Below, one piece after another: positions 7,734 to 22,135 of a DNA stretch of 64,000 nt. The position numbers and the translations under genes are program-made. The stretch lies in the NCBI GenBank assembly GCA_963795085.1, contig CAWCFX010000001.1, positions 608,001 through 672,000 on the forward strand, given 5' to 3'. The stretch is from an uncultured Gemmatimonadales bacterium. Lineage in GTDB: Bacteria > Gemmatimonadota > Gemmatimonadetes > Gemmatimonadales > GWC2-71-9. The notes under the pieces were generated by a model, which saw only the letters and a list, made by a program, of their open reading frames with translations, made no database searches and had not been told where the DNA came from. Within the stretch, counting starts at the first letter, position 1; each line of letters opens with the position of its first letter.

Positions 7734-7808
7734 GGTGGTTGTAGCTCAATCGGTTAGAGCGCCGGACTGTGGTTCCGGAGGTTGCGGGTTCGATCCCCGT
7801 CAGCCACC
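7734..7808 (+). tRNA. tRNA-His(GTG)
   Basis: Cloverleaf with G-1, acceptor GTGGTTG/CAGCCAC, anticodon loop CTGTGGT and T-loop TTCGATC; CCA not encoded. Confidence 0.95.
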
Positions 7809-7899
7809 CTGCAGGAGGGAGCCAGAGGGCAGGAGGACAAGAGGGCGTGACCGGGTGCGGTCACCCCTTGCCCCCTGTCCCACTGCCCCCCGGCCACCG

Positions 7900-7972
7900 A
7901 GGTCCGTAGCTCAATTGGTAGAGCACCGGTCTCCAAAACCGGGGGTTGCAGGTTCGATTCCTGCCGGGCCTG
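7900..7972 (+). tRNA. tRNA-Trp(CCA)
   Basis: AGGTCCG/CGGGCCT acceptor, anticodon loop CTCCAAA, TTCGATT. Confidence 0.95.
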
Positions 7973-7975
7973 TTC

Positions 7976-8122
7976 ACAGTGGGCAAGTGGGCAAGTGGGC
8001 AAGTGGGCACAGTGGGACAGTGGGACAGAGGGCAAGTGGGCAAGTGGGACACTGACCACTGACTCCCGGACCCACTGACCCCCTGACTCCCGGACCCACT
8101 GACCCACTGACCCACTGACCCC
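7976..8122. repeat. Octamer runs (GTGGGCAA/GTGGGACA)n followed by (CCCACTGA)n
   Basis: Visible 8-nt periodic runs in opposite orientation between two tRNAs. Confidence 0.8.
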
Positions 8123-8129
8123 CTTTGCT

Positions 8130-8202
8130 GGCGCTATCGTCTAGGGGACTAGGACGGGGCCCTCTCAAGGCCCAAACACGGGTTCGAATCCCGTTAGCGC
8201 TA
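8130..8202 (+). tRNA. tRNA-Glu(CTC)
   Basis: GGCGCTA/TAGCGCT acceptor, anticodon loop CTCTCAA, TTCGAAT. Confidence 0.95.
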
Positions 8203-8207
8203 TAGGA

Positions 8208-8322
8208 GAAGAGTACTGAGTGACGAGTACTGAGGTACTGAGTGCTGAGAGAGTTCGGCTGGCCGGATCATGAACTGAGATGGGAACCACTCAGTACTCA
8301 TTTCTCAGTACTCAGTACTGCT
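8208..8322. repeat. AGTACTGAG / CTCAGTACT inverted short repeats
   Basis: Visible; same family at 6841 and 55452-55525. Confidence 0.7.
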
Positions 8323-8329
8323 GGTTTTG

Positions 8330-8401
8330 GGCCCCATCGTCTATCGGTTAGGACACCACTCTTTCAAGGTGGGAAGACGGGTTCGATTCCCGTTGGGGCT
8401 A
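8330..8401 (+). tRNA. tRNA-Glu(TTC)
   Basis: GGCCCCA/TGGGGCT acceptor, anticodon loop CTTTCAA, TTCGATT. Confidence 0.95.
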
Positions 8402-8409
8402 TGCAAACT

Positions 8410-8562
8410 GAACGTGCCGCGTGCAGCGTAGCGCGTACAGCGTAACAGCATGTCGGGCCGGATCTTCACTGAAGGGCAGTTACGCTGCACGTTTAACGCT
8501 GCACGTGCGCTGCACGCTGCACGCTGCACGCTGCACGTCGTACGCTGCACGCTGCACGTGTA
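8410..8562. repeat. (GTGCAGC)/(GCTGCAC)n heptamer inverted repeats
   Basis: Visible 7-nt runs, reverse complement of the 6871-6970 family. Confidence 0.75.
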
Positions 8563-8570
8563 GTTCAAGA

Positions 8571-8643
8571 GCGCCGCTAGCTCAATTGGCAGAGCAAGTG
8601 ACTCTTAATCACTAGGTTGTAGGTTCGATTCCTACGCGGCGCA
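8571..8643 (+). tRNA. tRNA-Lys(CTT)
   Basis: GCGCCGC/GCGGCGC acceptor, anticodon loop CTCTTAA, TTCGATT. Confidence 0.95.
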
Positions 8644-8740: not shown

Positions 8741-9516
8741 TCAAGCAAGACGCCCGAGTCGCTTTCTTCGAAAGGCCCCTAGCGCTACCAATCCCGTGCA
8801 GATCAGTGTCGTCGTCGCCGGCTCCGGTGTTACCACGACGTCGGTATGGCTCGTGACCGGGCGGACATCGCTACTCGTGTTCGGACTTCCGCAGCGCGCA
8901 AAATGCTCCTCCTCCAAGCTGATGCCATTCGAAATCCACACCGAAGCCCAGTTCCGACATCGTTATCCGGCTGGTCGGTCTATGGAAGGAAAAAACAAAT
9001 CTTCCATCGAAGCCCTGACTCGCGCAGGTCTGGATGGCATTCGGGGTCGGGCCACCGAGGTCGTAGTCATAGGGAAACGGCCCTGGGTCGCAGCCAAAGA
9101 ATCCGACTGGTTCGACGGGGGCATAGAAGAGAGTCTCAGCCCACGCGCCGTCATACCAGTTGGAATGCCAGCCACTGGGAGCTTGCCCCGATGACGTTTC
9201 ACGTTCCCCTTCATGCCGGCCGAGAGGAGCACGACCCCGGAATCTGCAGCGACCAAACCAGTTAAAGTCGGGGTCTTGATGGAAGAGGAACATCCCCCCG
9301 ATCGAGCTGCCCCCGGTGTTGTCCAAGGGGTTCACGCCCTGAGTGTTGGCGATGGTCATGACGATACGGGTGCCGGTCGAAATCCGGACGACCCGAAGCG
9401 AGACGCTGGCGCATGCGTGGAACGCACCCGGAGTGCAGACGTCCCACTGTCTTGAGGAAGCGGCGGCAGATGAGAGTGAGACCGAGGAGTGGGAGAACGA
9501 AAAGGGCGCGTCGCAT
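8741..9516 (-). pseudogene. PEP-CTERM exosortase-substrate protein, frameshifted
   Basis: Signal peptide MRRALFVLPLLGL (9516), a middle part in another frame (WDVCTPGAFHACAS...TIANTQG) and a C-terminal VTPEPATTTLICTGLVALGAFRRKR in a further ORF segment. Confidence 0.7.
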
Positions 9517-9879
9517 ATGGAGAGTCCGTCAAAGGATCCACATCCTTACATTGTGGAGTGGGACTCCGCTAGAGTGTGCGTGGGTACACCCCGGGGTGTG
9601 CGTCGGCGACACACTGAGGTCTATCCTGCGCCTCCCCTGGCCTCATCTGATTTAACGGTGTGGAATCCTCGCAACACCCCTACCCCCCACATAACCGGAG
9701 ATTGGGCTCCGTGAGAGTCCTGGCAACGGGAAGGCAGCGCCGTTAGAGGCGTTCTGGCGCTGACCTCGAAGAAGCGACCAGGCTAACTCGTCGGGCTCAA
9801 GAGGGCGGATCTCCGGCAATAAGCTGCGATTGCTCCGGCAGTCGTCCCGGTTCCTGGCGGCAAGTGGCTGCTTGTCGCA

Positions 9880-10300
9880 GCTAAAAGACGAAGCGCCGTC
9901 GCGTCGTGACGCTCCCCGGAGATGACGGTCAAGGCGCTCAAGCGCCAGCGGGCCGACCAGGCGCAGGCCCGGCTCCTCCTCGGAGCGGAGTACAACGCCG
10001 AGTTGGACCTAATCTTTGCGACCCATACCGGGGAACCGCTCGACTGGCAGAACATCGCCCATCAGTACTTCCGGCCGATCCTCCGCAAGGCCAAGCTGCC
10101 GATCATCCGCCCCTATGACCTGCGGCACACTGCCGCCACGATCCTCCTCGCAGCCGGGGAACACCCTAAAGATCGTTGCCGAGCGTCTGGGCCATTCGAC
10201 CACCACCCTAACGATGGACACTTACAGCCACGTCCTCCCAGACATGCAGGATGGGGCGGCGACGAGGCTGGGCTCGTTGCTTGCAGTGAGCAACATTTAG
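9880..10300 (+). pseudogene. Phage-type tyrosine integrase, C-terminal catalytic remnant, frameshifted
   Basis: LIFATHTGEP, IRPYDLRHTAAT...GEHPK, then a shift to IVAERLGHS...TMDTYSHVLP; N-terminal domains absent. Confidence 0.85.
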
Positions 10301-10396
10301 AGTATCCCCGGTGATCAGCACAGCTGAGGGGAGGGCCGCAAGCGGGCTTTACTGCGGCCCTTTTACGCTCCCATGCGTTGATCCGGCGAGGCGAGA

Positions 10397-11626: not shown

Positions 11627-11671
11627 GACTCTAAATCACTAGGTTGTAGGTTCGATTCATACGCGGCGCAT
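11627..11671 (+). repeat. attR: duplicated tRNA-Lys 3' half
   Basis: GACTCTAAATCACTAGGTTGTAGGTTCGATTCATACGCGGCGCAT versus 8600-8644. Confidence 0.9.
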
Positions 11672-11949
11672 CACGAAAGTAAGAGGAGGCAGCGACCGCA
11701 GGAGCGGCCCCGCTGCCTCTTTCTGTTGGAGCCAGCCGGCAACCCGCAGCCAGCCTGGGCCCCGTCGTTGCGAGTGAGTCCGAGCCGAACGGATCTCGGG
11801 ACATTTGGCTTTCGACGGGTGGTACTGCCGGGCTCGATGACGGAATCAAGGCGTGGAGTCAGAAGGCCACAGATCCCGAGTTGCCCCCCCCTCTTGCGGC
11901 ATGCCCAGCCAGAATGCATGCTTGCCTTATCCCTGTCCCGACAGCCACA

Positions 11950-12765
11950 ATGGCGATCAAGATGTCCAAGCGGTTTGTTGACCGCGCCAAGGCACAGCTA
12001 CGCCGTTATCAGAAGATCATTGAGAGCGCACGAGCCCGGGATGTCGGAGAATCCGATACCTGTGTGATCGTGAGCGACTTTCTCTCCGATGTCCTGGGTT
12101 ACGACAAGTATGAGGATATCACAACCGAGTCTGCCATTCGGGCCACCTTCTGTGACCTAGCGATCAAGTGTGATGGGCGCCTCTGTTACCGCATCGAGGG
12201 TGGAAGTCGGTAGGAACCGATCTCAAGGAGAATCACTTGCGCCAGGCCGTTGACTACGGCGCCAAGGAAGGCTGCGAGTGGGTGTTGCTGACCAATGGCC
12301 AGGAATGGCAGGCCCATCGAATCAAGTATGACCAGCCGATAACACACGACGAGGTGTTCCGGCTTGATCTCCTGGATCCCGGGGCCGAGCTTGGCGGATC
12401 TTGCACGGCACCTGTATCTCATCGCGAAGGAAACCAGCGGTGGGAAGGATATCGATCGATTCTGGCGCCAGAAGGAGGCTACCAGCCGGTTCGTGATTGC
12501 CCAGCTCCTGCTCCAGGATAGCTTGCTGGCCGCTCTACGGCGGGAAGTGCGACGACTCTCGCCCGATGTACGGATTACTCGAGATGACCTCGGCGCGGTT
12601 CTCCGCAACGAGGTCCTCAAGCGGGAGACTTTGGAGGGCGACCGCGCAAAAGCGGCGGAGGCATTGGTCAAGCGGCTTGCACAGAAAGCGACTTCGAAAG
12701 CAGGCTGCGGCAGAAAAACCAGTTGCCGCTGTAGCCCCATGAGAGTTGAAATCCACTTCGCTTGA
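11950..12765 (+). pseudogene. Type I restriction enzyme HsdR N-terminal-domain protein (stand-alone PD-(D/E)xK nuclease), frameshifted
   Basis: ESDT..IVSDFLSDVLGYDKY...DLAIK / LRQAVDYGAKEGCEWVLLTNGQEW / LRREVRRLSPDVRI found in successive ORF segments. Confidence 0.75.
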
Positions 12766-12837
12766 GGCGAGGCTGCCAGGTTGCCGGTGGCGCCGGCGGG
12801 GCCGGACCACGGTAATGCGGGGGGAACCCGGTTTACC

Positions 12838-13139
12838 TCAACTACGAGCCCAGTCCGGATGCCGCCGGCGCCTGGTCCCACGACGGCCAGAGCATCGCCT
12901 TCATCAGCGGCCGCGACCTGCAGGCCGATCGGATCTACGTCATGACGGCCGATGGTACCAGCCTCCTCCTCGACGTTCCCGAGGCCCCGCCAGGAGGCTT
13001 CCCCGACTGGAGCCCCACCGACAGCCACATCGCCTTTACCGGCAACGCCGAGATCATGACCATGCGGCCGGATGGAAGCCAACTGGTCAACCTGACCAAC
13101 AACCCCGCCCAGGACCGCTACGCCAGCTGGAGCCCGTGA
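12838..13139 (+). pseudogene. TolB/PD40 beta-propeller gene 3' fragment
   Basis: PAWSHDG, PDWSPTD..IAFT and LTNNPAQDRYASWSP repeats; no intact 5' end. Confidence 0.65.
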
Positions 13140-13241
13140 AGGGTCATCCCTTTCCCTGGCGCGCTCGCTGCCAGGACCTACCAGAACTCACGCACCTGGG
13201 GGAACTCTAAGCGCTGTGTGTATAAACACTTGTGAACACCC

Positions 13242-13291
13242 TTGCCAATTCCATTTCTGGCTGCATACTAGCAACTAACTGGTTGTCAGGC
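13242..13291 (+). promoter_or_regulatory. Putative Pc-like promoter plus attI-like site (copy 1)
   Basis: TTGCCA-N16-CATACT then CAACTAACTGGTT-GTCAGGC; the flank GTCAGGCGCCACTAT is complementary to the next cassette end ATAGTGGCGCCGAAC (13736-13750). Confidence 0.6.
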
Positions 13292-13320
13292 GCCACTATC
13301 TGACCCTCACGCGAGGTGGT

Positions 13321-13728
13321 ATGGTAGAATGTCGTTTATCTCAGCCATGGGCACTCGCATTCTTGAGTTGTGGCGTTCTGTTCCTTGCCTGTAGTGACCC
13401 CTCGGCACCTGACTGCGATACTCCTCCTACTATTACTGTAGGGCCCGGTGGCGCACCCTCATTCAGCTGGTCTCCGGCCTGCCCCGTTGCCGACCTCCTT
13501 GTGGAGCCTCCTGATCCGACCGGTACGTGGTACTATCGCATTACCAATGCGAACGGAAAGAATGTTCTTGAACCCCCAATACGATATGGGGAGACCCGAT
13601 TTGGGACGGTTGTTTCGGGTCCCCCACCCGGGGGTCTAATTGCGACCGTAATTTATCGAGTTACGATTTCACGTAGCGATAGCGCCGGTCACTTTGTTAG
13701 CCTCAGCTCCCTTGTCTTCCAGCGCTAG
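13321..13728 (+). CDS. Cassette 1: hypothetical lipoprotein
   Basis: Hydrophobic N-terminus with LAC lipobox; bounded by attI-like and attC sites. Confidence 0.65.
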   Translation: MVECRLSQPWALAFLSCGVLFLACSDPSAPDCDTPPTITVGPGGAPSFSWSPACPVADLLVEPPDPTGTWYYRITNANGKNVLEPPIRYGETRFGTVVSGPPPGGLIATVIYRVTISRSDSAGHFVSLSSLVFQR

Positions 13729-13743
13729 GGCGTTAATAGTGGC

Positions 13744-13841
13744 GCCGAACCCGCGCTTGGAGCGGTCACCCGCGCCCAGCTACCTGCTGGACGCCACTAT
13801 ATACTGAGCGCGGATTGCCGCTCGAGCGCAAACCGATAAGC
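13744..13841 (+). repeat. attC site 1 (cores mutated to GCCGAAC / GATAAGC)
   Basis: GCGCTTGGAGCGG ... CCGCTCGAGCGC inverted L boxes; central part identical to attC 16660-16757. Confidence 0.8.
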
Positions 13842-13859
13842 GGCTGCCCAGGATCTCGA

Positions 13860-14621
13860 GTGGACATTGAATTCGGTCTCTTCTTCCTGGCTTTCATTGT
13901 CGGGCCCGCTGTGGTCGGCATGGTCTGGCAGTGGCGTGCTCGCGAGCGTAGTATTCGGCACGCGCTCGAGAAACGGAACAACCCCAGGCGTGTTGAGGCT
14001 CTGCTCCCCCTCCTGGACAGGTGTGTCGACATCCTGATCGCGGAGTATGGAGCAGACACCTTCGCTCACCCACAGCTCACGGTCGTTCCCGGAGTCATTG
14101 CGAACCGCCGCGATTTCATCCAGCATCTCATAACGCTCGCAGCAGAACGGTGGCAGATCACCCCGCCCCCAGTGAACCTTTCTGTCGTTCCTCCCAAAGA
14201 CAGGGAACATGCCGCGGGGACCTTTGTGCAGACCACCGCTGACTGGTCATTTAACGTGGATTCTGATGGCACGATAGGGCCCTCGGATGAACCCGCGTGG
14301 AGGATCTGTATTGATCCGGCTCACTTTCACGATGATCTCGCAGTGGCAGCGATCGTGGCCCACGAGTTCGCCCACGGCGTCCTGACCCGGGATGCGGTGG
14401 CTCTCGCCAGCGATGGCGAGAATGAGGTCCTGACAGATGTCGCCGCCGCGCTATCTGGCTTTGGTCAACTCATGCTCCAGATGCAAAACCGGGTGGAGCG
14501 GCAGTACGTGGCCAACGGCGGCCTGTCATACACGGTCGGCGGGCCAGGTTACCTGTGGCCCCAGGAGCTGGCTCATGTTCTCTGGCGCCACGGCAGGCTG
14601 AGCACCAATGGAGCCGCCTAA
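13860..14621 (+). CDS. Cassette 2: membrane-anchored HEXXH putative metallopeptidase
   Basis: N-terminal TM segment; IVAHEFAH..ENEVLTD motif; stop codon lies inside GCCTAAC (R'') at 14616. Confidence 0.65.
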   Translation: MDIEFGLFFLAFIVGPAVVGMVWQWRARERSIRHALEKRNNPRRVEALLPLLDRCVDILIAEYGADTFAHPQLTVVPGVIANRRDFIQHLITLAAERWQITPPPVNLSVVPPKDREHAAGTFVQTTADWSFNVDSDGTIGPSDEPAWRICIDPAHFHDDLAVAAIVAHEFAHGVLTRDAVALASDGENEVLTDVAAALSGFGQLMLQMQNRVERQYVANGGLSYTVGGPGYLWPQELAHVLWRHGRLSTNGAA

Positions 14622-14644
14622 CACGCCCGCCATCGGAGTCGCGT

Positions 14645-15076
14645 ATGAACGAGCGTCTGTTTTGCGAATTCCTAAGCGGTATTACCGAGGCTTCAGCCAT
14701 CGCTGCTGACTTGAACGGCACGAAGGTCACGCCGGATCACTGGTCTCACCGGACGAGCGCCAACTATCGCGGGTTGCCTATCTCACGCGAGTTTACGGTT
14801 CGGCCGGAACACGTCATTCGGCTTGTGGACGCACTGTCAGCCGGGTCGCTTACATCGGACCAGGTTACGACCGCCCTCTTCTGTGTGGAAGCGGCCCCCG
14901 ATCGGTTTGTGTGGGATACGGATACGACTGAGGGGGACCGCGTTGCCAGCGCAGTCTTCTGGCTGGGGACGCCGGAGATCAATTATCCACTCACGCCGGC
15001 GAACCTGGCGAAGATTCGACATTACCTTGAGACCGGTGAGAACACATTGACGACTGCCGATACCAAGGCCCGCTAA
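14645..15076 (+). CDS. Cassette 3: hypothetical protein
   Basis: ORF between a truncated attC (14616) and a half attC (15084). Confidence 0.6.
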   Translation: MNERLFCEFLSGITEASAIAADLNGTKVTPDHWSHRTSANYRGLPISREFTVRPEHVIRLVDALSAGSLTSDQVTTALFCVEAAPDRFVWDTDTTEGDRVASAVFWLGTPEINYPLTPANLAKIRHYLETGENTLTTADTKAR

Positions 15077-15083
15077 AGTCGAG

Positions 15084-15127
15084 GCCTAGCATGCGCTTGC
15101 AGCGATCAGCCGCGCCCGGCTACCCGC
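15084..15127 (+). repeat. Half attC (left arm only)
   Basis: GCCTAGCATGCGCTTGCAGCGATCAGCCGCGCCCGGCTACCCGC matches the left arm of the family, then the TolB-end copy follows. Confidence 0.65.
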
Positions 15128-15182
15128 GGTACCGATCCTGCTGGCCAGCCGCCACGTCCGGAATTGGATGCCAACCAAGACC

Positions 15183-15412
15183 ACGCGCCCGGATGGAAGC
15201 CAGCTCGTCAACCTGACCAACAACCCCGCCCAGGACCGCGACGCCAGCTGGAGCCCGTGAAGCGTCATCCTTCTCCCTTGGCGCGCTCGCTGCCAGAAGC
15301 TACCGTAACTCACGCACCTGGGGGACCCAGGCGCTCGGCTTATATATACTTACGAACACCCCTTGCCAATTCCGCTTCTAGCCACATACTAGCAACTAAA
15401 TAGTTGTTAGGC
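15183..15412 (+). repeat. Second copy of the TolB 3' end + promoter + attI-like platform
   Basis: ~230-bp diverged duplicate of ~13062-13291; TTGCCA-N16-CATACT; CAACTAAATAGTT-GTTAGGC. Confidence 0.85.
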
Positions 15413-15457
15413 GGCCCGAATCCGACACCTGGGTGGAACACTGAGAGGAGAGTCCCG

Positions 15458-15991
15458 ATGGTCTCGATGGTCATGTTGACGTTCCGCCTTGGTGTAGCAT
15501 CGTTGCTCCTTATCGCTACGGCTTGCAGTAATGAGGGGTCTGGCGACCTGCCTGCGGCGGCAGATTTGCTGTTCTCCCTACGTGCCGCGGACTCGTCAGT
15601 TGCGGCCGCAATCGCGGCGCGCGACCCTGAGCGCACTGCGGCATTTTATGCCGATAGCGCCGTCATAATGCCCGTTGCGGAACCGATCGTGGAGGGGCGC
15701 GCGGCTATCCTCGAAGAGTGGCGGCACGTTTTCGGTATTCCCGGCTTCGCCAACAACTCGCGGCTCATTGCGGCCGTGGTGTCCTCCGGTGGCGATTTGG
15801 GATACACTCGCGGAACCTACGAGTCGCTCATGCTGAGCCCCCGCGGGCAGAAGCTTGTCGAACGGGGGAAGTGGGTCACAATCTGGAAGCGCGGCGCGGA
15901 TGGCAGCTGGCGAATCGTCCTCGACATCTTTAATACGGACACGCCGCCACCAGAACATCAGCCCAGCACCGCGGAGCGTTCCGACCACTAA
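15458..15991 (+). CDS. Cassette 4: DUF4440/SnoaL-like (NTF2 fold) lipoprotein
   Basis: SD GAGGAG; GDLGYTRGTY and GKWVTIWKRGADGSWRIVLD motifs. Confidence 0.85.
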   Translation: MVSMVMLTFRLGVASLLLIATACSNEGSGDLPAAADLLFSLRAADSSVAAAIAARDPERTAAFYADSAVIMPVAEPIVEGRAAILEEWRHVFGIPGFANNSRLIAAVVSSGGDLGYTRGTYESLMLSPRGQKLVERGKWVTIWKRGADGSWRIVLDIFNTDTPPPEHQPSTAERSDH

Positions 15992-16027
15992 TGTCGTGAT
16001 GCGCGAGCGGCCGACTGACACGCGGCC

Positions 16028-16126
16028 GCCTATCACGCGCTTGGAGTGGCCATTCGCGCCAGGTCACCCGAAGGACGCCAGGACATTATGAGCGCGGATT
16101 GACAGCTCAAGCGCAAACCGTTAGGT
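16028..16126 (+). repeat. attC site
   Basis: GCCTATC-ACGCGCTTGGAG...GCTCAAGCGCAAACC-GTTAGGT. Confidence 0.85.
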
Positions 16127-16154
16127 GGCCCAAAAGCACATGTGACCGGTGACA

Positions 16155-16271
16155 ATGAACAGACTTCGCGCTTTAGTAGAAAAGGTTGCTCATTGGGACT
16201 TCATCATTCAGACCATCTTTGTCATCGGCCTCATCGTCGTTGGCTTAGTGCTGTACTTGAAGCAACGGTAG
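16155..16271 (+). CDS. Cassette 5: 38-aa single-TM small protein
   Basis: MNRLRALVEKVAHWDFIIQTIFVIGLIVVGLVLYLKQR; only + strand ORF seen between two attC sites. Confidence 0.55.
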   Translation: MNRLRALVEKVAHWDFIIQTIFVIGLIVVGLVLYLKQR

Positions 16272-16294
16272 TTTCAATGGATGTTGAGCGGGCC

Positions 16295-16390
16295 ACCTAA
16301 CACGCGCTTGGAGTGGCCATTCGCGCCAGGCCACTCGCTGGACGCCAGGATGTGATCAGCGCGAATGCCATTCAAGCGCCAACCGTAGGC
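16295..16390 (+). repeat. attC site
   Basis: ACCTAAC-ACGCGCTTGGAGTGG...CCATTCAAGCGCCAACC-GTAGGC. Confidence 0.85.
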
Positions 16391-16400
16391 GGCATTTCTG

Positions 16401-16649
16401 GTGACTTGGCCTGAACGAACTCTCTCGACTCGATTGCTGGCCGGCCTGGTAGGGGCGGTCTTGGGGGCGTTCATAGGATTCGGCGTAGGCGCAGGGTGGT
16501 TCCGGTCGATGAACAACGGACATCCGCCGATCGCCCAGTTCGTTGCGGGAGCGGCGATCTTAGCTTTTCTCATTTCATTCTGGGTCGGCGACCCTGCAGT
16601 CCGCTTTCTAATGCGGATGATTGGTGGAGGACGGCCGAAGCGTTTGTGA
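16401..16649 (+). CDS. Cassette 6: small two-TM membrane protein
   Basis: Two hydrophobic segments; cassette-bounded. Confidence 0.6.
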   Translation: MTWPERTLSTRLLAGLVGAVLGAFIGFGVGAGWFRSMNNGHPPIAQFVAGAAILAFLISFWVGDPAVRFLMRMIGGGRPKRL

Positions 16650-16659
16650 CGCCAATGCC

Positions 16660-16757
16660 GCCTAACACGCGCTTGGATCGGTCACCCGCGCCCAGCTACC
16701 TGCTGGACGCCACTATATACTGAGCGCGGAATGCCACTCAAGCGCCAACCGTTAGGC
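16660..16757 (+). repeat. attC site (canonical cores)
   Basis: GCCTAAC ... GTTAGGC with inverted L boxes. Confidence 0.9.
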
Positions 16758-16799
16758 CGCACAACCCATTCGCCGGCAGCACTTCGGGAAAGGTCGTTG

Positions 16800-17138
16800 G
16801 TGAGATTCTCGTGGTCATGCATCCTGCTTATGCCGTCTGCCTTGGCTTGCGCCAGGCAAACGGTGATGGACAAGAACTCGCCACAACCGATCGTGAAAGT
16901 GGTGGCGGAATACCCCGCCGAACTCCGACCACTCAACCGAGTAGGCCACGTCATAGCGATTTTTATGATTGACACACTGGGTGTGCCACAGGAGCATACG
17001 ATCAAGATTGTGCAGGCCTCACATCCGGCATTTGTCGCTCCAGTGCGACAGGCTATACCGCGCTGGCGCTTTCGCCCGAGTGAAGTAACAGGGGATAGAA
17101 CACCGTGGGTGCAACTCAGGTTTGACTTTTCACCGTAG
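16800..17138 (+). CDS. Cassette 7: TonB C-terminal-domain protein
   Basis: YPAELR..GHV...F.IDTLG..ASHPAF....RWRFRP...VQLRFDF. Confidence 0.7.
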   Translation: MRFSWSCILLMPSALACARQTVMDKNSPQPIVKVVAEYPAELRPLNRVGHVIAIFMIDTLGVPQEHTIKIVQASHPAFVAPVRQAIPRWRFRPSEVTGDRTPWVQLRFDFSP

Positions 17139-17156
17139 TGCCAGACAGAGGGTGCT

Positions 17157-17254
17157 GCCTCACCCGCGCTTGGAGCGGTCAGCCGCGCCCGGCTACCTGC
17201 TGGACGCCACTATATGCTGAGGCGCGTATTGCCGCTCGAACGCCACCGTCAGGC
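17157..17254 (+). repeat. attC site
   Basis: GCCTCAC-CCGCGCTTGGAGCGG...CCGCTCGAACGC..GTCAGGC. Confidence 0.8.
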
Positions 17255-17309
17255 AGCCCTGAGAGAGGACCTCCCGAATTCACGCTCCCTGAGGCCGGCC
17301 CGGCAACGT

Positions 17310-17927
17310 ATGTTCCTTGGACTGATTGGCACGGCCGTCCTGGCGGTGGATCTTCTTCTCGTACACAACGAACAGATTGTCACGTGGGTACGGTTCACTC
17401 CGCCCGCAGTTGGGTTAGTGGCGATTGTGTTGTCTGCTGTTGATCGCGAGACATTGCTGGGGTTTAGCCGGATCCGAGAGCGACCGTGGGCCGTGCTCAT
17501 GGCCATCGCGATTCTTGGCACCTATCTATGGGTGAGCGCATATTCGTCACCCGTTGGGTCCGGGGCTGTCGACTGCCGGTTGCAGGAGCGACTCTGTACG
17601 GCCCCTTACTGGCTCGCGCCGGGGATTCAACAGCTGACCGTTCTGGCGCCTCTGGTCGAAGAGAGTGTATATCGCGCGGTGGGGTTCGGAGCCTTGGCGC
17701 TAGCTCTTGGGCCCATTCCGGCCCTCATCATCTCAACGGCTGCGTTTGGGTTCCTGCATCACCTCTACGGAAGCTTGCGGTGGTTCCACCTCGCCGCTGG
17801 ACTGGCGTACACGGGCCTGTACTGGTATGGCAGGTCCCTGGCTTTGAACATTGCGACTCACGCAGCGATGAACTGGGCGGTTATGCTGAGAAACCTCGCC
17901 CGCTGGTACGCTTACTATACGCCGTGA
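17310..17927 (+). CDS. Cassette 8: CPBP/Abi (CAAX-type) intramembrane metalloprotease
   Basis: APLVEESVYR, FGFLH and THAAMN motifs. Confidence 0.85.
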   Translation: MFLGLIGTAVLAVDLLLVHNEQIVTWVRFTPPAVGLVAIVLSAVDRETLLGFSRIRERPWAVLMAIAILGTYLWVSAYSSPVGSGAVDCRLQERLCTAPYWLAPGIQQLTVLAPLVEESVYRAVGFGALALALGPIPALIISTAAFGFLHHLYGSLRWFHLAAGLAYTGLYWYGRSLALNIATHAAMNWAVMLRNLARWYAYYTP

Positions 17928-17941
17928 TAACCCATGGAATC

Positions 17942-18040
17942 GCCCGACAGGTGCGTGCAGTCGCCGATGCGCGCTGGGCCCACTCGATGGACATCAGCAC
18001 ATGATCACCGCGAATCCCGCTCAAGCGCCAACCGGTAGGC
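17942..18040 (+). repeat. Degenerate attC site
   Basis: Right arm CCGCTCAAGCGCCAACC-GGTAGGC conserved; left arm diverged. Confidence 0.6.
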
Positions 18041-18065
18041 GCTACAACCATCACAACCGGAAGCG

Positions 18066-18425
18066 ATGAGCGACCAACTCGGCGGCCTGCTCAGAAGCCC
18101 GATCGCCCAGGCAGTGATCCCCGTCGGGATGCTGCTGCTCTACGTGCGGTTCGTCTGGGAATATCGCCGCGCCCTTCGGCGTCGCCTGGAGGATCCGGAA
18201 TGGAAGGTCAATACAACGCGATTCCTCGTGTGGAAGTCGAGAATGTGGTCATTCCTCGGTGTGGGAGCGTGGATTCTGCTCGTGGTGGCGGTGGACTTGT
18301 TTGGAGGGACGACGCCAGGCACCACCACGGCGTTCACGTGGGGGTTCGGCATTCTCTTTGTGTGGGTCGGGGCGACTGCGTTCATCGAGGGATTCATGGA
18401 AGGTCCCGGCGGGAATAGCCAGTGA
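18066..18425 (+). CDS. Cassette 9: three-TM membrane protein
   Basis: Hydrophobic segments; cassette-bounded. Confidence 0.65.
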   Translation: MSDQLGGLLRSPIAQAVIPVGMLLLYVRFVWEYRRALRRRLEDPEWKVNTTRFLVWKSRMWSFLGVGAWILLVVAVDLFGGTTPGTTTAFTWGFGILFVWVGATAFIEGFMEGPGGNSQ

Positions 18426-18451
18426 CGCCGCCGGTTCGTGGCCCGGTCGCA

Positions 18452-18501
18452 CGGTCAACCGCGCCGGGTTACCCGCTGGACGCAGGTACTCAGGCAGCCA
18501 C
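18452..18501 (+). repeat. attC remnant (internally deleted)
   Basis: CGGTCAACCGCGCC..TACCCGCTGGACGC central motif; TCAGGCAGCCAC pairs with GTGGCTGCCTAAC at 18768. Confidence 0.55.
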
Positions 18502-18527
18502 AGTAGGGTTCTCGTGGGAGGTCAGCG

Positions 18528-18749
18528 ATGGACCAAGGCAGCGCCGATCGGGCAAAACCCGGAATCTTTCTCTACGCTTGCTCGGGATGTGCCTGCATAC
18601 TTGGCGTGTCGCTCGTCACCCTGGGCTTACTCAGCCGTGGCGGACACCCGATGCTCCCGATCCTCGCTGGAGTGTTGGCTCTCGTGCTCGGCAGCCTCCT
18701 CTTGGCTTGGGCCCGCGGCCGCTCGCGCAGGCGGACGAGGGCAGCTTAG
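18528..18749 (+). CDS. Cassette 10: small two-TM membrane protein
   Basis: SD GGAGG; two hydrophobic segments. Confidence 0.6.
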   Translation: MDQGSADRAKPGIFLYACSGCACILGVSLVTLGLLSRGGHPMLPILAGVLALVLGSLLLAWARGRSRRRTRAA

Positions 18750-18773
18750 CTTCACGGAATCAATGTCGTGGCT

Positions 18774-18868
18774 GCCTAACACGCTTGGAGCAGTCAACCG
18801 CGGCTGACTACCCGCTGGACCCCACCACCTGACTCGCGCGGATGCCGCTCAAGCGCAAACCGTTAGGA
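18774..18868 (+). repeat. attC site
   Basis: GCCTAAC-ACGCTTGGAGC...GCTCAAGCGCAAACC-GTTAGGA. Confidence 0.85.
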
Positions 18869-18917
18869 ATCACGGCCACACATCCCCTATATGTCAGGCT
18901 CCTCCAGGAGGGCTCTT

Positions 18918-19094
18918 ATGCAACTGCAACTCACGGCAGTCTTTCAGAAGGTTCCCGAGGGCTATATTGGCTTTATTGAGGAACTTCCCGGCGCCAATAC
19001 TCAAGGGGCAACCCTGGACGAGGCGCGCGCAAATCTGACCGAGGCTGTCCACCTCGTGTTTGAGGCCAATCGCGCGTTGACGGAGGAACCGTGA
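18918..19094 (+). CDS. hicB: Cassette 11: HicB-family antitoxin (possibly C-terminally shortened)
   Basis: EGYIGFIEELPGANTQGATLDEARANL signature; SD GGAGG. Confidence 0.85.
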   Translation: MQLQLTAVFQKVPEGYIGFIEELPGANTQGATLDEARANLTEAVHLVFEANRALTEEP

Positions 19095-19095
19095 A

Positions 19096-19170
19096 GTGCC
19101 GCGACACCGCGAACTCAACAACCACTTGGCTCGGACGACCTGTCGGGATCTAGAGATCGAGGAGCCCTGA
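19096..19170 (+). pseudogene. hicA: HicA toxin C-terminal remnant
   Basis: VPRHRELNNHLARTTCRDLEIEEP resembles a HicA C-terminus; N-terminal half missing. Confidence 0.65.
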
Positions 19171-19172
19171 GG

Positions 19173-19290
19173 CCCTGACACGCGCTTGGAGCGGTCAACC
19201 GCGCCCATGTCCATGCGTTGGATGGAATCCACCTCGTCAACCTGACCAGCCCCCCAGGATTGCGACGCCAGCTGGAGCCCGTGAAGGTTC
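19173..19290 (+). repeat. Half attC joined to a third TolB 3'-end copy
   Basis: CCCTGAC-ACGCGCTTGGAGCGGTCAACCGCGCCC then GGATGGAA..CTCGTCAACCTGACCA..GCCAGCTGGAGCCCGTGAAG. Confidence 0.75.
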
Positions 19291-19300
19291 CCCCTTCATC

Positions 19301-19650
19301 TTACCCCCGCACCGCTTCAGCATACTCGACACACCCGGCAAAATCGTCCGCGCGCCCTTCATAATCGAAGTTCACCTCACCGTCATACTCGACACGCCCG
19401 GCATAATCGTCCGCGCGCCCTTCATAATAGAAGTTGACCTCACCGTCATAGCCGGCACACCCGGCATAATCGTCCGCGCGCCCTTCATGATTGATGTTCA
19501 CCTCACCTTCTTACTCCGCACTCCCGAAATAATCGTCCGCGCGCTCGACGTAATCCACAGCAAACTGTAAATAATCCACAGCACACCCGGCAAAATGTTC
19601 CGCGCGGCCTGCGTAATCCACAGTGCTGTGACCGTCATACTCCACGCGGC
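19301..19650. repeat. 63-bp tandem repeat (~5 copies, 21-bp sub-period)
   Basis: Units start at 19332, 19395, 19458, 19521 and 19584; minus frame reads (EGRADDYAGRVEYDGEVNFDY)n. Confidence 0.8.
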
Positions 19651-20062
19651 CTGCGAAATCCCGTGTCCCGTCCACTTTCGGCGCCAGCCGAGGCACGAAA
19701 ACACCCGAACCTGTCCTCCCGGGGAGACGCCTGCGGCATATTCGAAAACGTGGGCCTCCAACCGATGAACACGTTTTCAATGCTCCCGCCACCACCTTCC
19801 CGAAGAGCCCGCCACCACGTGGCCCCAGCCTGGCCGATCCCCTTGATCGTCAAGGAGATCGCTGCACTCAGCCTCCCCGCATCGCAACTCGTCGCCTCAC
19901 CTGCCGCACCTCTCGCGCGCCACCCTCCATTGCCCGATGGCCCGGCTGATGCCTTCGGACAGGGCGTCGGCCCGGAGTCGGGACGCCGGGACCGAGCAGT
20001 CCTCTTTCATTGGTTCCGGTCCGCCCCCGACGCGGGCCGGCTGCTCCAGAAAGGAGCGTTGT

Positions 20063-20734
20063 ATGAGATCCCCCATTCGTAGGAAACTGGAGATGGCCGC
20101 CCGGGTCCGGGAGTTCTGCCAGGCCCACATCTCCACCGAACCCGGGTTTGCTCCGGTCCTGGCACGACTGGAAGCCACCCTGGTTCGCGGTACCGCGATC
20201 GACGCCCGGCAGCAGCAAGGCTTCATGGCGTCCCGCGTCGCCCGGGGCCGCCGGCGGGAGCTCCGCCGGCTGATCCACTTCCAGCTGGTCCGCTACGTAG
20301 TCGCCCTCGGCGCCTACGCCACCCGGGCCCAGGCCGGCGAGTCGAAGCGGTTCAAGATTCCCAACTCGAGCCTCCCCAACGCCGCCTTCGTGACCGCCGT
20401 GCGCGGGCTCATCGGCGACGCCACCCAGCACCAGGAAGAACTGGTGGCCCTGGGGATGGCCCCGGCCCTGCTGGACGAGCTGACCCTCCAGGTCGGCGAG
20501 TTCGAAACCGCCGCCGAGGCGGGGCGGACCGCGCGCCGCGACCACATCGGCGCGCGGGAAGAGCTGGAAGAGGTCAACGCCAGCATCAGCGGCGAGGTCC
20601 GCGCCATTGACGGCATCGTCGGCTATAGCTTCGGGAACAACCGCGACATCATGGCGGAATGGCGCGCCGCCAAGCGGATCCCCGGTCCGCGGAAAGGAAA
20701 CAATGGGAATGTCGGAGAGACGAAAGCCGCTTAA
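20063..20734 (+). CDS. Hypothetical, probably all-helical protein
   Basis: SD AAGGAG before ATG 20063; host-like codon usage. Confidence 0.7.
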   Translation: MRSPIRRKLEMAARVREFCQAHISTEPGFAPVLARLEATLVRGTAIDARQQQGFMASRVARGRRRELRRLIHFQLVRYVVALGAYATRAQAGESKRFKIPNSSLPNAAFVTAVRGLIGDATQHQEELVALGMAPALLDELTLQVGEFETAAEAGRTARRDHIGAREELEEVNASISGEVRAIDGIVGYSFGNNRDIMAEWRAAKRIPGPRKGNNGNVGETKAA

Positions 20735-20736
20735 AG

Positions 20737-20880
20737 AGATTGAGGGAATGTTGGAATTGAGGGAAATGTGGAATTGGAATGCAGTTCCAATTCCCACATT
20801 CCTTCAATTCCACCATTCCCTCAATTCCACCATTCCCTCAATTCCAACATTCCCTCAATTCCACAATTCCCTCAATCTAT
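20737..20880. repeat. (ATTGAGGGA)n/(TTCCCTCAAT)n inverted short-period repeat
   Basis: Visible; recurs at 21393-21555, 21960-22126 and 55256-55367. Confidence 0.85.
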
Positions 20881-21315
20881 CTATCTGATCTGTTCCATCA
20901 ACGTCGCCAGGTCAAAGTACTGCCGCTGCAGCTTCACCTTTCCATCCACCACCTGCATCACGTTACAGGCCCGGAGCGAGATCTTCCGGCCGGTCGCCGG
21001 CAGCGGTCCCTTCGGCGTCTGGAGCGTCCCCGTATGGGTGCCGGTCCAGGTCAGCTCGAGGACCACCATGTCCCCGCTCACGTGGCTGGCATGGAAGGTG
21101 GGCCGAGAGTCGGGAAGCGCCGCCGCCCAGCCGCGGTACATCTCCAGCACCTGCTCCGGCCCTTCGGCCTTCCGGCCGGACGCCACCTCGTCATACACCA
21201 CGTCGGACGTCATCGCCGCCCGGGCGGCCTCCCAGTCCTTCGCGGCATAGGCCAGGAACGGCGCCTTGGCGGCTTCCACCAGGCCGGGGCGGGTGGCGGT
21301 TGACTGCGCAGACAT
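20881..21315 (-). CDS. SnoaL-like ester cyclase
   Basis: WTGTHTG.L...GPLPATGRKI and YFDLATLMEQ motifs. Confidence 0.85.
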   Translation of the reverse strand: MSAQSTATRPGLVEAAKAPFLAYAAKDWEAARAAMTSDVVYDEVASGRKAEGPEQVLEMYRGWAAALPDSRPTFHASHVSGDMVVLELTWTGTHTGTLQTPKGPLPATGRKISLRACNVMQVVDGKVKLQRQYFDLATLMEQIR

Positions 21316-21392
21316 AAAGCTTCCTCCTGTCAGGGGGTAGATGGGTTGGAAATTCAACCTTCTCTACGCCGGAAGACACGGGGCGGATCTAT

Positions 21393-21555
21393 TAATTGAG
21401 GGAATGGGGGAATTGAGGGAATCCGGGAATTGAGGGAATCCGGGAATTGAGGGAATCTAGGAATTGAGGGAATGTTGGAATTGAAGGAAATGTTGAAATT
21501 GAGTGCAGTTCCAATTCCACATTTCCCTCAATTCCAACATTCCGTCAATTTCCCT
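21393..21555. repeat. (GGAATTGAGGGAAT)n inverted repeat
   Basis: Visible tandem units followed by the reverse complement. Confidence 0.8.
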
Positions 21556-21949
21556 CCTCGTTCATCACCATCCACGAGGTCCCGAACCGGTCCCGCAGCA
21601 TGCCGAAGCGGGAGGCGTAGAAGGTCTTGTCCAGCTTCACGAAGATCTCGCCGCCGTCGGCCAGCAGGGCATAGATCCGTTCGGCCTCCGCGTCGCTGTC
21701 CACCCGGAGCGACAGGTAGGCGCTCCGCATCGGCTCGGCGGCCGGGATGTCAGCCCCCATGAGGACCGTGTCGCCGATCTCGATCCGGGCGTGGAGAATC
21801 TTCTGTTCCCAGCCGGCCGGGATGCCCTCCCGCTTCGGCTGGTCGCCGTGCCGCTGCACCATGGTGATCCGGCCGCCCAGGTGCTCTTCGTAGAAGCGGA
21901 ACGCCTCCTCGCAGGTCCCGCGGTAGTTGATATAGATGTCGAGCTTCAT
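21545..21949 (-). CDS. VOC family protein (PhnB/YjdN-like)
   Basis: GTCEEAFRFY, ILHARI and FGMLRDRFGTSWM motifs. Confidence 0.9.
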   Translation of the reverse strand: MKLDIYINYRGTCEEAFRFYEEHLGGRITMVQRHGDQPKREGIPAGWEQKILHARIEIGDTVLMGADIPAAEPMRSAYLSLRVDSDAEAERIYALLADGGEIFVKLDKTFYASRFGMLRDRFGTSWMVMNEEGN

Positions 21950-21959
21950 TTTTAGATCC

Positions 21960-22126
21960 AGGGAATTGAGTGATGCAGGGAGTCGTGGAACTGAATGGGA
22001 AATGTAAGGAATGGGGGAATTGAGGGAAATGTGGAATTGAGGGAATGTTGGAATTGAAGGAATGTTGGAATTGAATGCAGTTCCAATTCCACATTTCCCT
22101 CAATTCCAACATTCCGTCAATTCCCC
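21960..22126. repeat. GGAATTGAGGGAA-family inverted repeat
   Basis: Shares near-identical segments with 21460-21555 and 20737-20810. Confidence 0.8.
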
Positions 22127-22135
22127 CACCCTCCC

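Follow-up and report, generated by a model that had tools for sequence, protein, structure and literature searches.

The window, by which we mean the whole stretch of 64,000 nucleotides analysed here, appears to contain two adjacent CALINs (attC clusters without an integrase) that have kept paralogous attI platforms, and whose tandem layout was not produced by the integron integrase (IntI); we give this reading a probability of roughly 0.6. Integrase-less arrays with an attI and a promoter-like element of their own are an unusual variant of a known element. They are CALINs in the sense of Cury et al. (2016), attCs being present and the nearest intI lying on another contig; as for the parts of a complete integron, attC-bounded cassettes and an attI with an attI x attC junction are present, and an intI within the element is absent. 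Judged by homology, each platform is a paralogue of the attI in the chromosomal integron of the genus, with a conserved promoter-like element in front, and the two satellite arrays probably depend on a single distant IntI that would serve them in trans. The features are as follows, in window positions, with a bar marking a crossover or cassette boundary.

12825-13139, plus strand: PD40 remnant copy 1, 5'-truncated PD40 lipoprotein gene, final 107 codons; stop codon 13137-13139
13140-13235, plus strand: post-stop flank common to copies 1 and 2, from the alignment of the two copies
13242-13269, plus strand: promoter-like site of platform 1 (candidate Pc), TTGCCA-16-CATACT, a consensus match only (9/12)
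13258-13291, plus strand: attI-1, GGCTGCATACTAGCAACTAACTGGTTG|TCAGGC, crossover 13285|13286; pattern match C1:621276-621290
13286-13835, plus strand: array 1, cassette 1; 135-aa ORF with no Pfam match; attC 13740-13851
13836-15135, plus strand: array 1, cassette 2; ORFs 13860-14621 (HEFAH motif) and 14645-15076; terminal attC reduced to its left half
15176-15260, plus strand: PD40 remnant copy 2, the last ~26 codons, frame intact; stop codon 15258-15260
15261-15412, plus strand: platform 2, with post-stop flank, promoter-like site 15363-15390 and attI-2, ending CATACTAGCAACTAAATAGTTG|TTAGGC, crossover 15406|15407
15407-19206, plus strand: array 2, 8 cassettes; boundaries 16120|1, 16385|6, 16751|2, 17248|9, 18035|6, 18489|90 and 18862|3
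19207-19284, plus strand: PD40 remnant copy 3, homology stopping approximately at the stop codon (19282-19284); no platform after it

The platforms and their attI sites

A TTGCCA-N16-CATACT promoter had been noticed in both blocks, and a consensus scan does find this promoter-like site in each platform (13242-13269 and 15363-15390); over 13000-15500 the scan returned 3 sites, against 0.8 +/- 0.9 in shuffled sequence. Since no promoter-like site was found in the main attI regions of this genome (G000) or of G171, a genome of the same genus, CATACT may be an IntI-binding repeat instead of a -10 box. The post-stop flank is identical between copies 1 and 2 at 57/64 positions in 13140-13203 and at 22/33 in 13204-13238, and aligns to nothing in the main attI regions.

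To the right of this flank the platforms are recognisably attI. The degenerate pattern TAAMTRGNNGTYAGG matches the genome at exactly three places, namely the two blocks (the second at C1:623397-623411) and the attI of the resident integron, while its reversed control has 0 matches. Platforms 1 and 2 both align to the main attI of this genome and to that of G171 over ~30-60 nt left of the crossover; the GGCTGCATACT motif of attI-1 is also present in the G171 attI, and TAAATAGnnGTTAGG of attI-2 agrees with the main attI at 13/15 positions. The crossovers were placed by the complementarity between platform and cassette attC: GTCAGGCGCCACTAT (from 13285) pairs with ATAGTGGCGCCGAAC (from 13736) in the attC of the first cassette over 11 contiguous bases, and in platform 2 GTTAGGCGGCC (from 15406) pairs with GGCCGCCTATC (from 16024) over 9. 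The complementarity noticed earlier between each site and the far end of the next cassette is confirmed, and homology to the attI of G000 and G171 can be added to it. By these sequence features both satellite sites are of attI type, each with a canonical attI x attC junction and a different first cassette.

The cassette arrays

Arrays 1 and 2 hold 2 and 8 cassettes, respectively, and their contents differ from one another, as had been noticed, and from those of the main array as well, which contains no paralogue of any of the 11 cassette ORFs. Neither ORF of cassette 2 in array 1 matches Pfam, and array 2 includes DUF4440/SnoaL-like, TonB_C-like, Rce1-like and HicB-like products together with small membrane proteins. 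The attC model R1 matches the window seven times (E 8.5e-29 to 1.2e-9), once in array 1 (cassette 1; 117.4 bits, E 8.5e-29) and six times in array 2 (16024, 16291, 16656, 17153, 17938 and 18770), and two left halves are present in addition. Window and main-array attCs share a single consensus, which includes both the GGAGCGGTCAACC and the GGAGTGGCCATTC subtypes. The R' at 13835 is GATAAGC, the score of the site at 17938 is a low 48.5 bits, and an attC at ~18425-18500 has an internal deletion; because several of the window's attCs are degraded and two are halved, the arrays may be partly fossil.

The resident integron and its distant integrase

The search for intI had been proposed with the original prediction: none of the five TIGR02249 matches in the genome falls in the window, no intI is found in or near the arrays, and the single match above the cut-off (375 bits versus 265) is on another contig, at C2:15552-16487. 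Downstream of this intI, R1 identifies 21 attCs on C2:357-11388 and a further 17 at the end of C1, the contig that holds the window, which together form one co-oriented array that the assembly breaks, leaving one part at the end of C1 and the other at the start of C2. The main array therefore comprises at least 38 attC sites headed by intI, and lies ~750 kb from the satellite arrays.

It had been presumed that an intI should stand where the PD40 end is found, and this premise fails in the genus. The main attI of G000 (GGTAAATAGGAG|TTAGGCAGCAC, followed by a first cassette whose attC starts GTGCTGCCTAAC) is located behind a cupin gene, 3.7 kb from the co-oriented intI, with three ordinary genes in the interval, and 4.1 kb separate the end of the intI ORF from the first attC. 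In G171 the attI (GGCTGCATACTGGTAAATAGGAG|TTAGGTGGCC, then attCs) is found behind a GH38 gene and shows 76% identity to the G000 main attI region over 83 nt. Of the intI loci of the family, 15/30 have less than 500 nt of contig left downstream of intI, and a crude attC motif is found downstream and co-oriented at 6/30 loci and divergent at 0/30.

The PD40 gene remnants

A repeated block of about 230 bp, with its TolB-gene end present a third time, was the starting point of the original prediction, and blastn against the whole genome bears this out, with no copies beyond the three when the window blocks are searched against all 3.89 Mb. The block, in which ~150 nt follow a PD40 gene 3' end, lies at 13055-13292 and 15176-15413 (85.0% identity over 240 nt, E 5e-70; query 12780-13300, second copy at C1:623176-623413), and a repeat search of the window returns the same pairs (D12, D14, D17 and D18). 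The third copy, matched at 19206-19290 (80-82% identity over 83-91 nt, E 1e-15 to 1e-16), is a PD40 end without a platform. It was thought to begin at ~19213; it is present, but starts at 19207, directly after a half attC, and its frame is broken by a 5-nt deletion.

What had been taken for a TolB/PD40 gene ahead of the first copy is only the last 107 codons of one, with neither a start codon nor a signal peptide in the sequence and with a weak Pfam PD40 match (E 0.003). An intact 288-aa PD40 lipoprotein of G171 (PD40-A) matches window 12825-13136 by tblastn with 64.5% identity over 107 aa (its residues 181-287), and window 15189-15257 with 73.9% over 23 aa. Each of the three PD40 pieces is a pseudogene remnant, none of them part of an intact gene, and nothing marks them as a dedicated target of recombination. 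They lie in a decaying island of low GC3 next to a tRNA cluster, with GC3 of 0.6-0.7 over 8.6-19.9 kb versus ~0.9 outside. BLAST of the ~40-nt filler before copy 2 (15136-15175) gave nothing informative and assigned it to no source. When copies 1 and 2 are compared, the PD40 end is better kept (73/78 nt identical) than the platform (120/145; Fisher p = 0.024); junk DNA that had been duplicated in place would not be expected to show this, and it would fit a gene end that is selected or recombinationally important.

Recurrence of the block behind other PD40 genes, which might have been expected, is not seen: the native orthologue (C1:505873-506730) and both G171 PD40 genes have no platform downstream. 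Platform-free PD40 ends are present in G171 and elsewhere in this genome. Across 200 other genomes of the family the block query matches a bare PD40 end alone, in G171; 400 other genomes of the order give no match at E <= 1e-5, two pattern scans of contig collections give no relative of the block, and no relative with a single PD40-platform unit is found in the genomes and collections searched. Other tandem partial duplications are also present at PD40 loci of this genus.

Origin of the tandem arrangement

A half attC had been reported ahead of copies 2 and 3, and blastn and repeat family D6 agree, placing left-half attCs at 15084-~15135 and 19165-19206, neither of which continues into the L'/R' half. 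Both unit junctions are in the middle of an attC and away from the G|TT crossover point, so that the integron integrase cannot have built the tandem. The original prediction had proposed either repeated integration at the PD40 end or duplication of the platform; we discard neither, except that IntI could not have made the tandem. At two independent junctions an attC centre is joined to the last PD40 blade, a coincidence for which there is no demonstrated mechanism.

In the reading that we prefer, the distant IntI, acting in trans, would have inserted cassettes at each satellite attI, and TTGCCA-16-CATACT would drive expression of the first cassette. The layout (PD40 end, platform, cassettes and half attC, twice, and then a PD40 end) would have arisen by general or illegitimate recombination. 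Either a PD40-platform-cassette unit underwent segmental duplication long ago and was later trimmed, or two diverged copies of such a unit were stacked one after the other at a resident PD40 gene end.

A rearrangement might instead have copied or moved the resident attI and part of its array to this position, followed by duplication. Splitting of integrons by rearrangement is among the CALIN origins given by Cury et al. (2016; PMC4889954), and the attC type is that of the main array and the attI sites are homologous. However, a ~28-nt indel and many substitutions separate platforms 1 and 2 from the main attI region, the GGCTGCATACT of platform 1 is closer to G171 than to the main site of its own genome, no cassette is common to the main and satellite arrays, and no IS flanks the latter, making such a split-off unlikely. 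A more speculative possibility, which we also regard as unlikely, is that the attI platforms of this genus are autonomous relocatable units, uncoupled from intI, and that a module was added repeatedly at the PD40 end. Just as tentatively, that module would comprise a copy of a gene 3' end, a promoter, an attI and cassettes, and the cupin, GH38 and PD40 neighbours would be footprints of its mobility.

Site-specific accretion, in which non-autonomous modules insert repeatedly into the PD40 3' end and restore it so that copy 3 is the displaced original end, is improbable, even though direct repeats of the gene 3' end lie at every boundary (three copies for two units). The homology of copy 3 ends approximately at the stop codon, and a repeat-protein ORF in convergent orientation comes next, as it would at a native gene end; copy 3 is as distant from copy 1 as from copy 2 (62/72 nt identical to each), and those two are closer to one another; and the better conservation of the PD40 end and the existence of platform-free ends point the same way. 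Against this, a cognate recombinase was found neither in cis nor in trans: the 12.8-19.3 kb region, and hence either unit, has no recombinase ORF, and the nearby broken recombinase (9922-10314, weak PF00589 match, E 6e-5) belongs to a 3-kb islet flanked by a 45-nt repeat of the tRNA-Lys 3' end. The PD40 repeats differ at their left edges (about 15176 versus 19207), the units end in truncated attCs rather than in defined element ends, and the arrangement has no second occurrence in the 200 family genomes, the 400 order genomes or the two collection scans. The 22-nt run ACGCCAGCTGGAGCCCGTGAAG at the extreme gene end is identical in all three copies, but by a rough estimate is not significantly longer than expected by chance at 86% identity.

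Insertion by IntI at a fortuitous GWT site downstream of the PD40 gene has a precedent in Loot et al. (bioRxiv 10.1101/2022.09.11.507474), who show IntI placing cassettes at GWT sites of the genome, but is very unlikely here, since their attG differs from attI in sequence and structure and would share only the GWT core, whereas ~30-60 nt of the satellite targets are homologous to attI. Wrong joining of repeats in assembly is scarcely credible: integron arrays do break assemblies, as the main array was broken between C1 and C2, but these repeats, at only 80-85% identity, are too diverged to collapse or mis-join, and among the low-depth Logan contigs of one run (X1, possibly the source sample and not independent) one covers 19154-19304 over the copy-3 junction with one mismatch and another extends at least 79 letters to each side of 15125/15126.

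Implications

CALINs are common, but whether one is a dead fragment or a working outpost is seldom known, because attI sites can rarely be identified; in the survey of Cury et al. (PMC4889954), attI is described as unknown for most integrons and was left out of the search. Three recognisable attIs of one type and a single intI provide a testable case of one integrase serving several platforms in trans. They also show attI uncoupled from intI, 3.7 kb away in G000 and behind a different gene in the congener. Given the IntegronFinder clustering distance of 4 kb (PMC4889954), the 4.1 kb between intI and the first attC means that the main integron itself might be called as an In0 plus a separate CALIN, and if such splitting is frequent, censuses of integrons in such lineages may be miscounted. 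Were the relocatable-unit reading true, one integrase would serve several independent sites of capture and expression per genome.

Relationship to known systems

Integrative elements can accrete in tandem at the 3' end of a gene, as ICESt1 and CIME do at fda in Streptococcus thermophilus. The present locus resembles these in its three direct repeats of a gene 3' end and its two adjacent units, one or both without an integrase, and differs in three respects: the searches gave no cognate recombinase, the repeats have unequal edges, and each unit stops within a truncated attC. In integrons of the inverted-integrase, Treponema-like type, intI is co-oriented with the cassettes and heads a long array of highly homogeneous attCs. 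The resident integron of G000 has the same orientation, a long array and very homogeneous attCs, but its intI and attI are 3.7 kb apart and its satellite arrays have no intI at all; sedentary chromosomal integrons of this type are mentioned in PMC4889954.

Loot et al. (bioRxiv 10.1101/2022.09.11.507474) propose that small CALINs can originate by insertion at attG, and this attG/SALIN route likewise places cassettes outside the integron by means of an integrase acting in trans. The targets in the satellite arrays differ in being attI homologues rather than GWT sites unrelated to attI. The closest match is the CALIN as described in PMC4889954, with at least two attCs, no intI nearby and an IntI encoded elsewhere in the genome, and there the use of CALIN cassettes by a distant integrase is considered possible. 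Compared with that description, each cluster here starts with an attI homologue and a promoter-like site, and two such platform-bearing clusters stand in tandem with remnants of the same gene end between them.

Copies of the PD40 gene end

The window corresponds to C1:608001-672000 in the 3.89-Mb, 6-contig genome of the Gemmatimonadales bacterium (G000). A blastn search of that whole genome, using the blocks of the original prediction as queries, gave three copies and no more:

13055-13292: block copy 1
15176-15413: block copy 2, 85.0% identity over 240 nt (E 5e-70)
19206-19290: PD40-end copy 3, 80-82% identity over 83-91 nt

In a five-sequence alignment that includes a pair of intact PD40 genes from G171, a genome of the same genus, all three copies contain the last ~26 codons of the gene to its stop codon, and copies 1 and 2 alone share a further ~150 nt past it. 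Search and alignment thus bear out three TolB (PD40) gene ends, two of them within a longer block. Copies 1 and 2 are identical at 73/78 coding positions, the differences reading as 3 synonymous and 2 non-synonymous, and at 120/145 non-coding positions, with 4 gap columns, so that the coding part is the more conserved of the two (Fisher p = 0.024). Copy 3 is identical to copy 1, and likewise to copy 2, at 62/72 positions; its frame is broken by a 5-nt deletion, and because just 30/57 positions align past the stop codon, homology extends no further than the end of the gene. At 19258-19680 there are six tandem copies of a 63-nt unit; the minus strand codes here for a repetitive peptide (…YEGRADDYAG…VEYDGEVNF…) that is broken up by changes of frame, in an ORF convergent with PD40 copy 3.

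Copy 1 retains only the last 107 PD40 codons. Upstream of it, three consecutive ORF fragments in different frames (11881-12765) look like pieces of a single disrupted gene, and none of them reaches the Pfam threshold. The interval 7735-8643 holds five clustered tRNA genes (His, Trp, Glu, Glu, Lys). The 3' 45 nt of tRNA-Lys (8571-8643) are repeated, 95.6% identical, at 11627-11671, and the 3-kb islet between the two, upstream of copy 1, carries a broken, frameshifted tyrosine recombinase (about 9343-10314). GC3 is 0.6-0.7 over 8.6-19.9 kb versus about 0.9 in the flanking genes. On the other side, three long intergenic palindromic arrays of 17-nt units (GGAATTGAGGGAAT…) are present at 20732-20886, 21391-21560 and 21996-22130; they gave sub-threshold Rfam matches to miRNA-hairpin families, and similar stretches occur on several G171 contigs and in the genome G065.

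The resident integron

The proposed whole-genome search for intI found a single true gene, on contig C2 and not in the window (TIGR02249, 375 bits versus a cut-off of 265). From intI downstream, the order is:

C2:15552-16487, minus strand: intI
next ~680 nt: non-coding DNA, rich in CCAACCC-like repeats
next, opposite strand: AraC-type ORF
next, intI strand: 461-aa ORF and 140-aa ORF
next ~320 nt: non-coding DNA
next: main attI, GGTAAATAGGAG|TTAGGCAGCAC

From their translations, the 461-aa and 140-aa ORFs would encode a PLP-dependent decarboxylase and a cupin. It follows from this gene order that intI and the cassettes are co-oriented and that attI lies 3.7 kb from intI, a gap (within C2:11850-16520) that holds three ordinary ORFs. 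The attC of the first cassette of this main array starts GTGCTGCCTAAC. The left neighbour of attI is the cupin gene here, in G171 a GH38 gene and, at both satellite clusters of the window, a PD40 remnant; within this genus attI and intI are uncoupled from each other. The earlier premise that a TolB end had taken the place of intI beside attI therefore fails, as the main attI itself does not adjoin intI.

In G171, contig C272 carries genes for an MBL-fold protein, an M28 peptidase and a 1085-aa GH38-like protein (Pfam), in that order, and ~40 nt past the last of these the sequence reads …GGGTCTAGCGG…CAGCATACTAC…GGCTGCATACTGGTAAATAGGAG|TTAGGTGGCC. The attC of the first cassette there starts GTGGCCACCTAAC, and a second attC comes after it; this is a 540-contig assembly, whose contiguity is to be taken with caution. 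The G000 orthologue of the M28 gene is at C6:319655-321106 (77% nucleotide and 79% amino-acid identity), and no GH38 or MBL match was found in G000 at E <= 1e-20. No attI adjoins the G000 M28 gene, because nothing past it in the C6 region aligns with the G171 contig.

Across the family, intI exceeded the cut-off in 99/201 genomes, a tally that counts G000 and takes in the unpublished genomes G068, G134 and G198, which enter into nothing else stated here. At the 30 best family intI loci, a crude attC motif derived from G000 was found downstream and co-oriented in 6/30, upstream in the same orientation in 1/30 and divergent in 0/30; the contig ended <500 nt downstream of intI in 15/30 and was short upstream in 1/30. 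This survey is in line with the inverted-integrase arrangement that Cury et al. (PMC4889954) mention.

attI sites of the two platforms

We use platform for the post-stop flank, promoter-like site and attI that follow PD40 copies 1 and 2. The G171 attI stretch is 76% identical to the main attI region of G000 over 83 nt, and both platforms can be aligned to these two main regions, which have an extra ~28 nt with a second CATACT-like repeat. The sequence GGCTGCATACT is identical in platform 1 and G171, while TAAATAGnnGTTAGG of platform 2 agrees with the main site at 13/15 positions. The pattern TAAMTRGNNGTYAGG has three matches in G000, one in each platform and one at the main attI, and its reversed control has none. 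Across the family this degenerate attI pattern matched 7 other genomes, only the G171 match being at an attI; outside G000 the reversed control matches at a similar or higher rate, and these matches, the G171 attI excepted, behave like noise. The start of the first cassette is complementary to the R'' end of its attC over 11 bases (platform 1) and 9 bases (platform 2). On the basis of the homology, the pattern matches and this complementarity, we place genuine attI x attC junctions, as read from the sequence, at 13285|13286 and 15406|15407, which upholds the proposal that the block site pairs as an attI with the far end of the next cassette. The block is not a degenerate attC 3' half, as it has no L'/CAAGCGC element.

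A consensus scan also recovered the promoter-like TTGCCA-N16-CATACT element described for each block in both platforms, but not in the main attI region of either G000 or G171. Since those regions are without it, CATACT may be a repeat to which the integrase binds there; platforms 1 and 2 pair it with a conserved TTGCCA.

Cassette arrays

A covariance model built from 17 main-array attCs and 6 window attCs gave 82 matches in G000, counting opposite-strand mirror matches of the same sites. These and the partial sites are as follows:

C2:357-11388, minus strand: 21 attC sites
C1:1381134-1390351, minus strand: 17 attC sites, the last cut by the contig end
C1:1371508-1380724, further in: 4 weaker attC sites
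Window 13740, 16024, 16291, 16656, 17153, 17938, 18770: 7 attC sites
C1:1096416-1098172: other matches, beside an IS3-like transposase
C6:416449, 432096, 441259: other matches
Window 15084-~15135: left-half attC, end of array 1
Window 19165-19206: left-half attC, end of array 2
Window ~18425-18500: internally deleted attC, read from the sequence

The main array runs off C2 and resumes at the end of C1, where the contig end truncates the last attC, so that C2 is probably the continuation of C1. At C1:1094900-1098172 there is a small CALIN (cluster of attC sites lacking integrase) of three degraded attCs, directly after the IS3-like two-ORF transposase.

The model matches and the half attCs confirm that the two platforms head integron cassette arrays; counted from R' cores, array 1 has 2 cassettes and array 2 has 8. 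Few cassette products could be named by Pfam (DUF4440/SnoaL_2, TonB_C, Rce1-like and a weak HicB/UPF0150 match), and 0/11 cassette ORFs had a main-array paralogue. The second cassette of array 1 (13860-15076) holds two ORFs, one of 253 aa with a HEFAH (HExxH-like) motif and one of 143 aa, neither with a Pfam match.

Relatives and assembly

Platform-free PD40 ends do exist. G171 contig C131 has an intact tandem pair of genes for 288-aa PD40 lipoproteins, and after each come unrelated DNA and a gene in convergent orientation; the G000 orthologue (C1:505873-506730, 55.6% identity over 288 aa) has a degraded, partial second copy behind it. No platform is found after any of these three genes, and the suggested recurrence of the block behind other PD40 genes was not seen at them. 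On C131 a two-gene unit of surface-repeat protein and PD40 lipoprotein is present in tandem duplicate, and at C1:503500-510500 of G000 the same unit has behind it a second copy from which a large internal part is deleted.

Nor was any relative of the block found in the genomes and contig collections searched. At the DNA level, 200 other genomes of the family gave the G171 PD40 end and short weak matches only, and 400 other genomes of the order gave none at E <= 1e-5. The pattern ACTAGCAACTAANNNGTTGTNAGG had 0 matches in the genome contig collection and 0 in the metagenome contig collection; GCCAGCTGGAGCCCGTGAAG had 7 in metagenome contigs, all within unrelated sequence and none at a PD40 end. 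The 107-aa PD40 remnant retrieved 4 loci, each merely 35-46% identical. In each of the three congeners compared, the contig ends at the tRNA cluster, with the downstream genes on other contigs.

A sequencing run labelled hot-springs metagenome (X1) has 0.08 of sampled words in common, and its low-depth contigs match several stretches of the region at 97-99% identity; it may be the source sample. One contig, matching 19154-19304 at all positions but one, runs through the copy-3 junction, and another flanks 15125/15126 by at least 79 letters on each side; none covers 13062-13754 (copy 1 and platform 1).

Origin of the tandem

IntI crosses over at R' G|TT. At both unit junctions an attC centre is joined to the last PD40 blade, at positions that differ in each partner; because they are mid-attC rather than at R' G|TT, and at differing positions, these junctions are products of illegitimate or general recombination, and their formation by IntI is ruled out. 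Insertion of an IS or intron into attC is likewise ruled out, as the right halves of the attCs are missing and neither kind of element is present; no Rfam family, and no group II intron, was matched over 12.6-19.5 kb. Microhomology between the attC centre (GATGGACGCCA) and PD40 (GATGGAAGCCA) was rejected as the cause, with the junctions lying 12 and about 55 nt upstream of this motif. BLAST gave nothing informative on the source of the junction filler at 15126-15195, 19195-19240 and 12740-12840.

Two histories fit these observations. A unit of PD40 gene, platform and cassettes may have undergone an old tandem duplication, after which cassettes turned over and the internal PD40 copies were later trimmed. 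The PD40 loci of the genus do show duplications with internal deletion, and long-lasting function of the copies would explain why the coding part is better conserved; however, this history requires that copy 3 was stripped of its platform precisely at the end of the gene. Alternatively, two diverged PD40-platform units may have been stacked in turn at a resident platform-free PD40 end, each insertion being anchored by homology in PD40 and completed at its far end by an illegitimate join. Such stacking accounts for copy 3 but requires donors, and none were found. A dedicated site-specific mechanism would be a special case of stacking, without any supporting recombinase.

Comparison with known systems

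By the definition of Cury et al. (2016), both clusters are CALINs in a genome with IntI elsewhere, and the block site is not an attG as Loot et al. use that term. What is novel with respect to CALINs is that an identifiable attI paralogue and a promoter-like element head each cluster, and that remnants of a single gene end bracket two such platform-headed clusters in tandem; novel here, too, is a primary attI that itself lies kilobases from intI.
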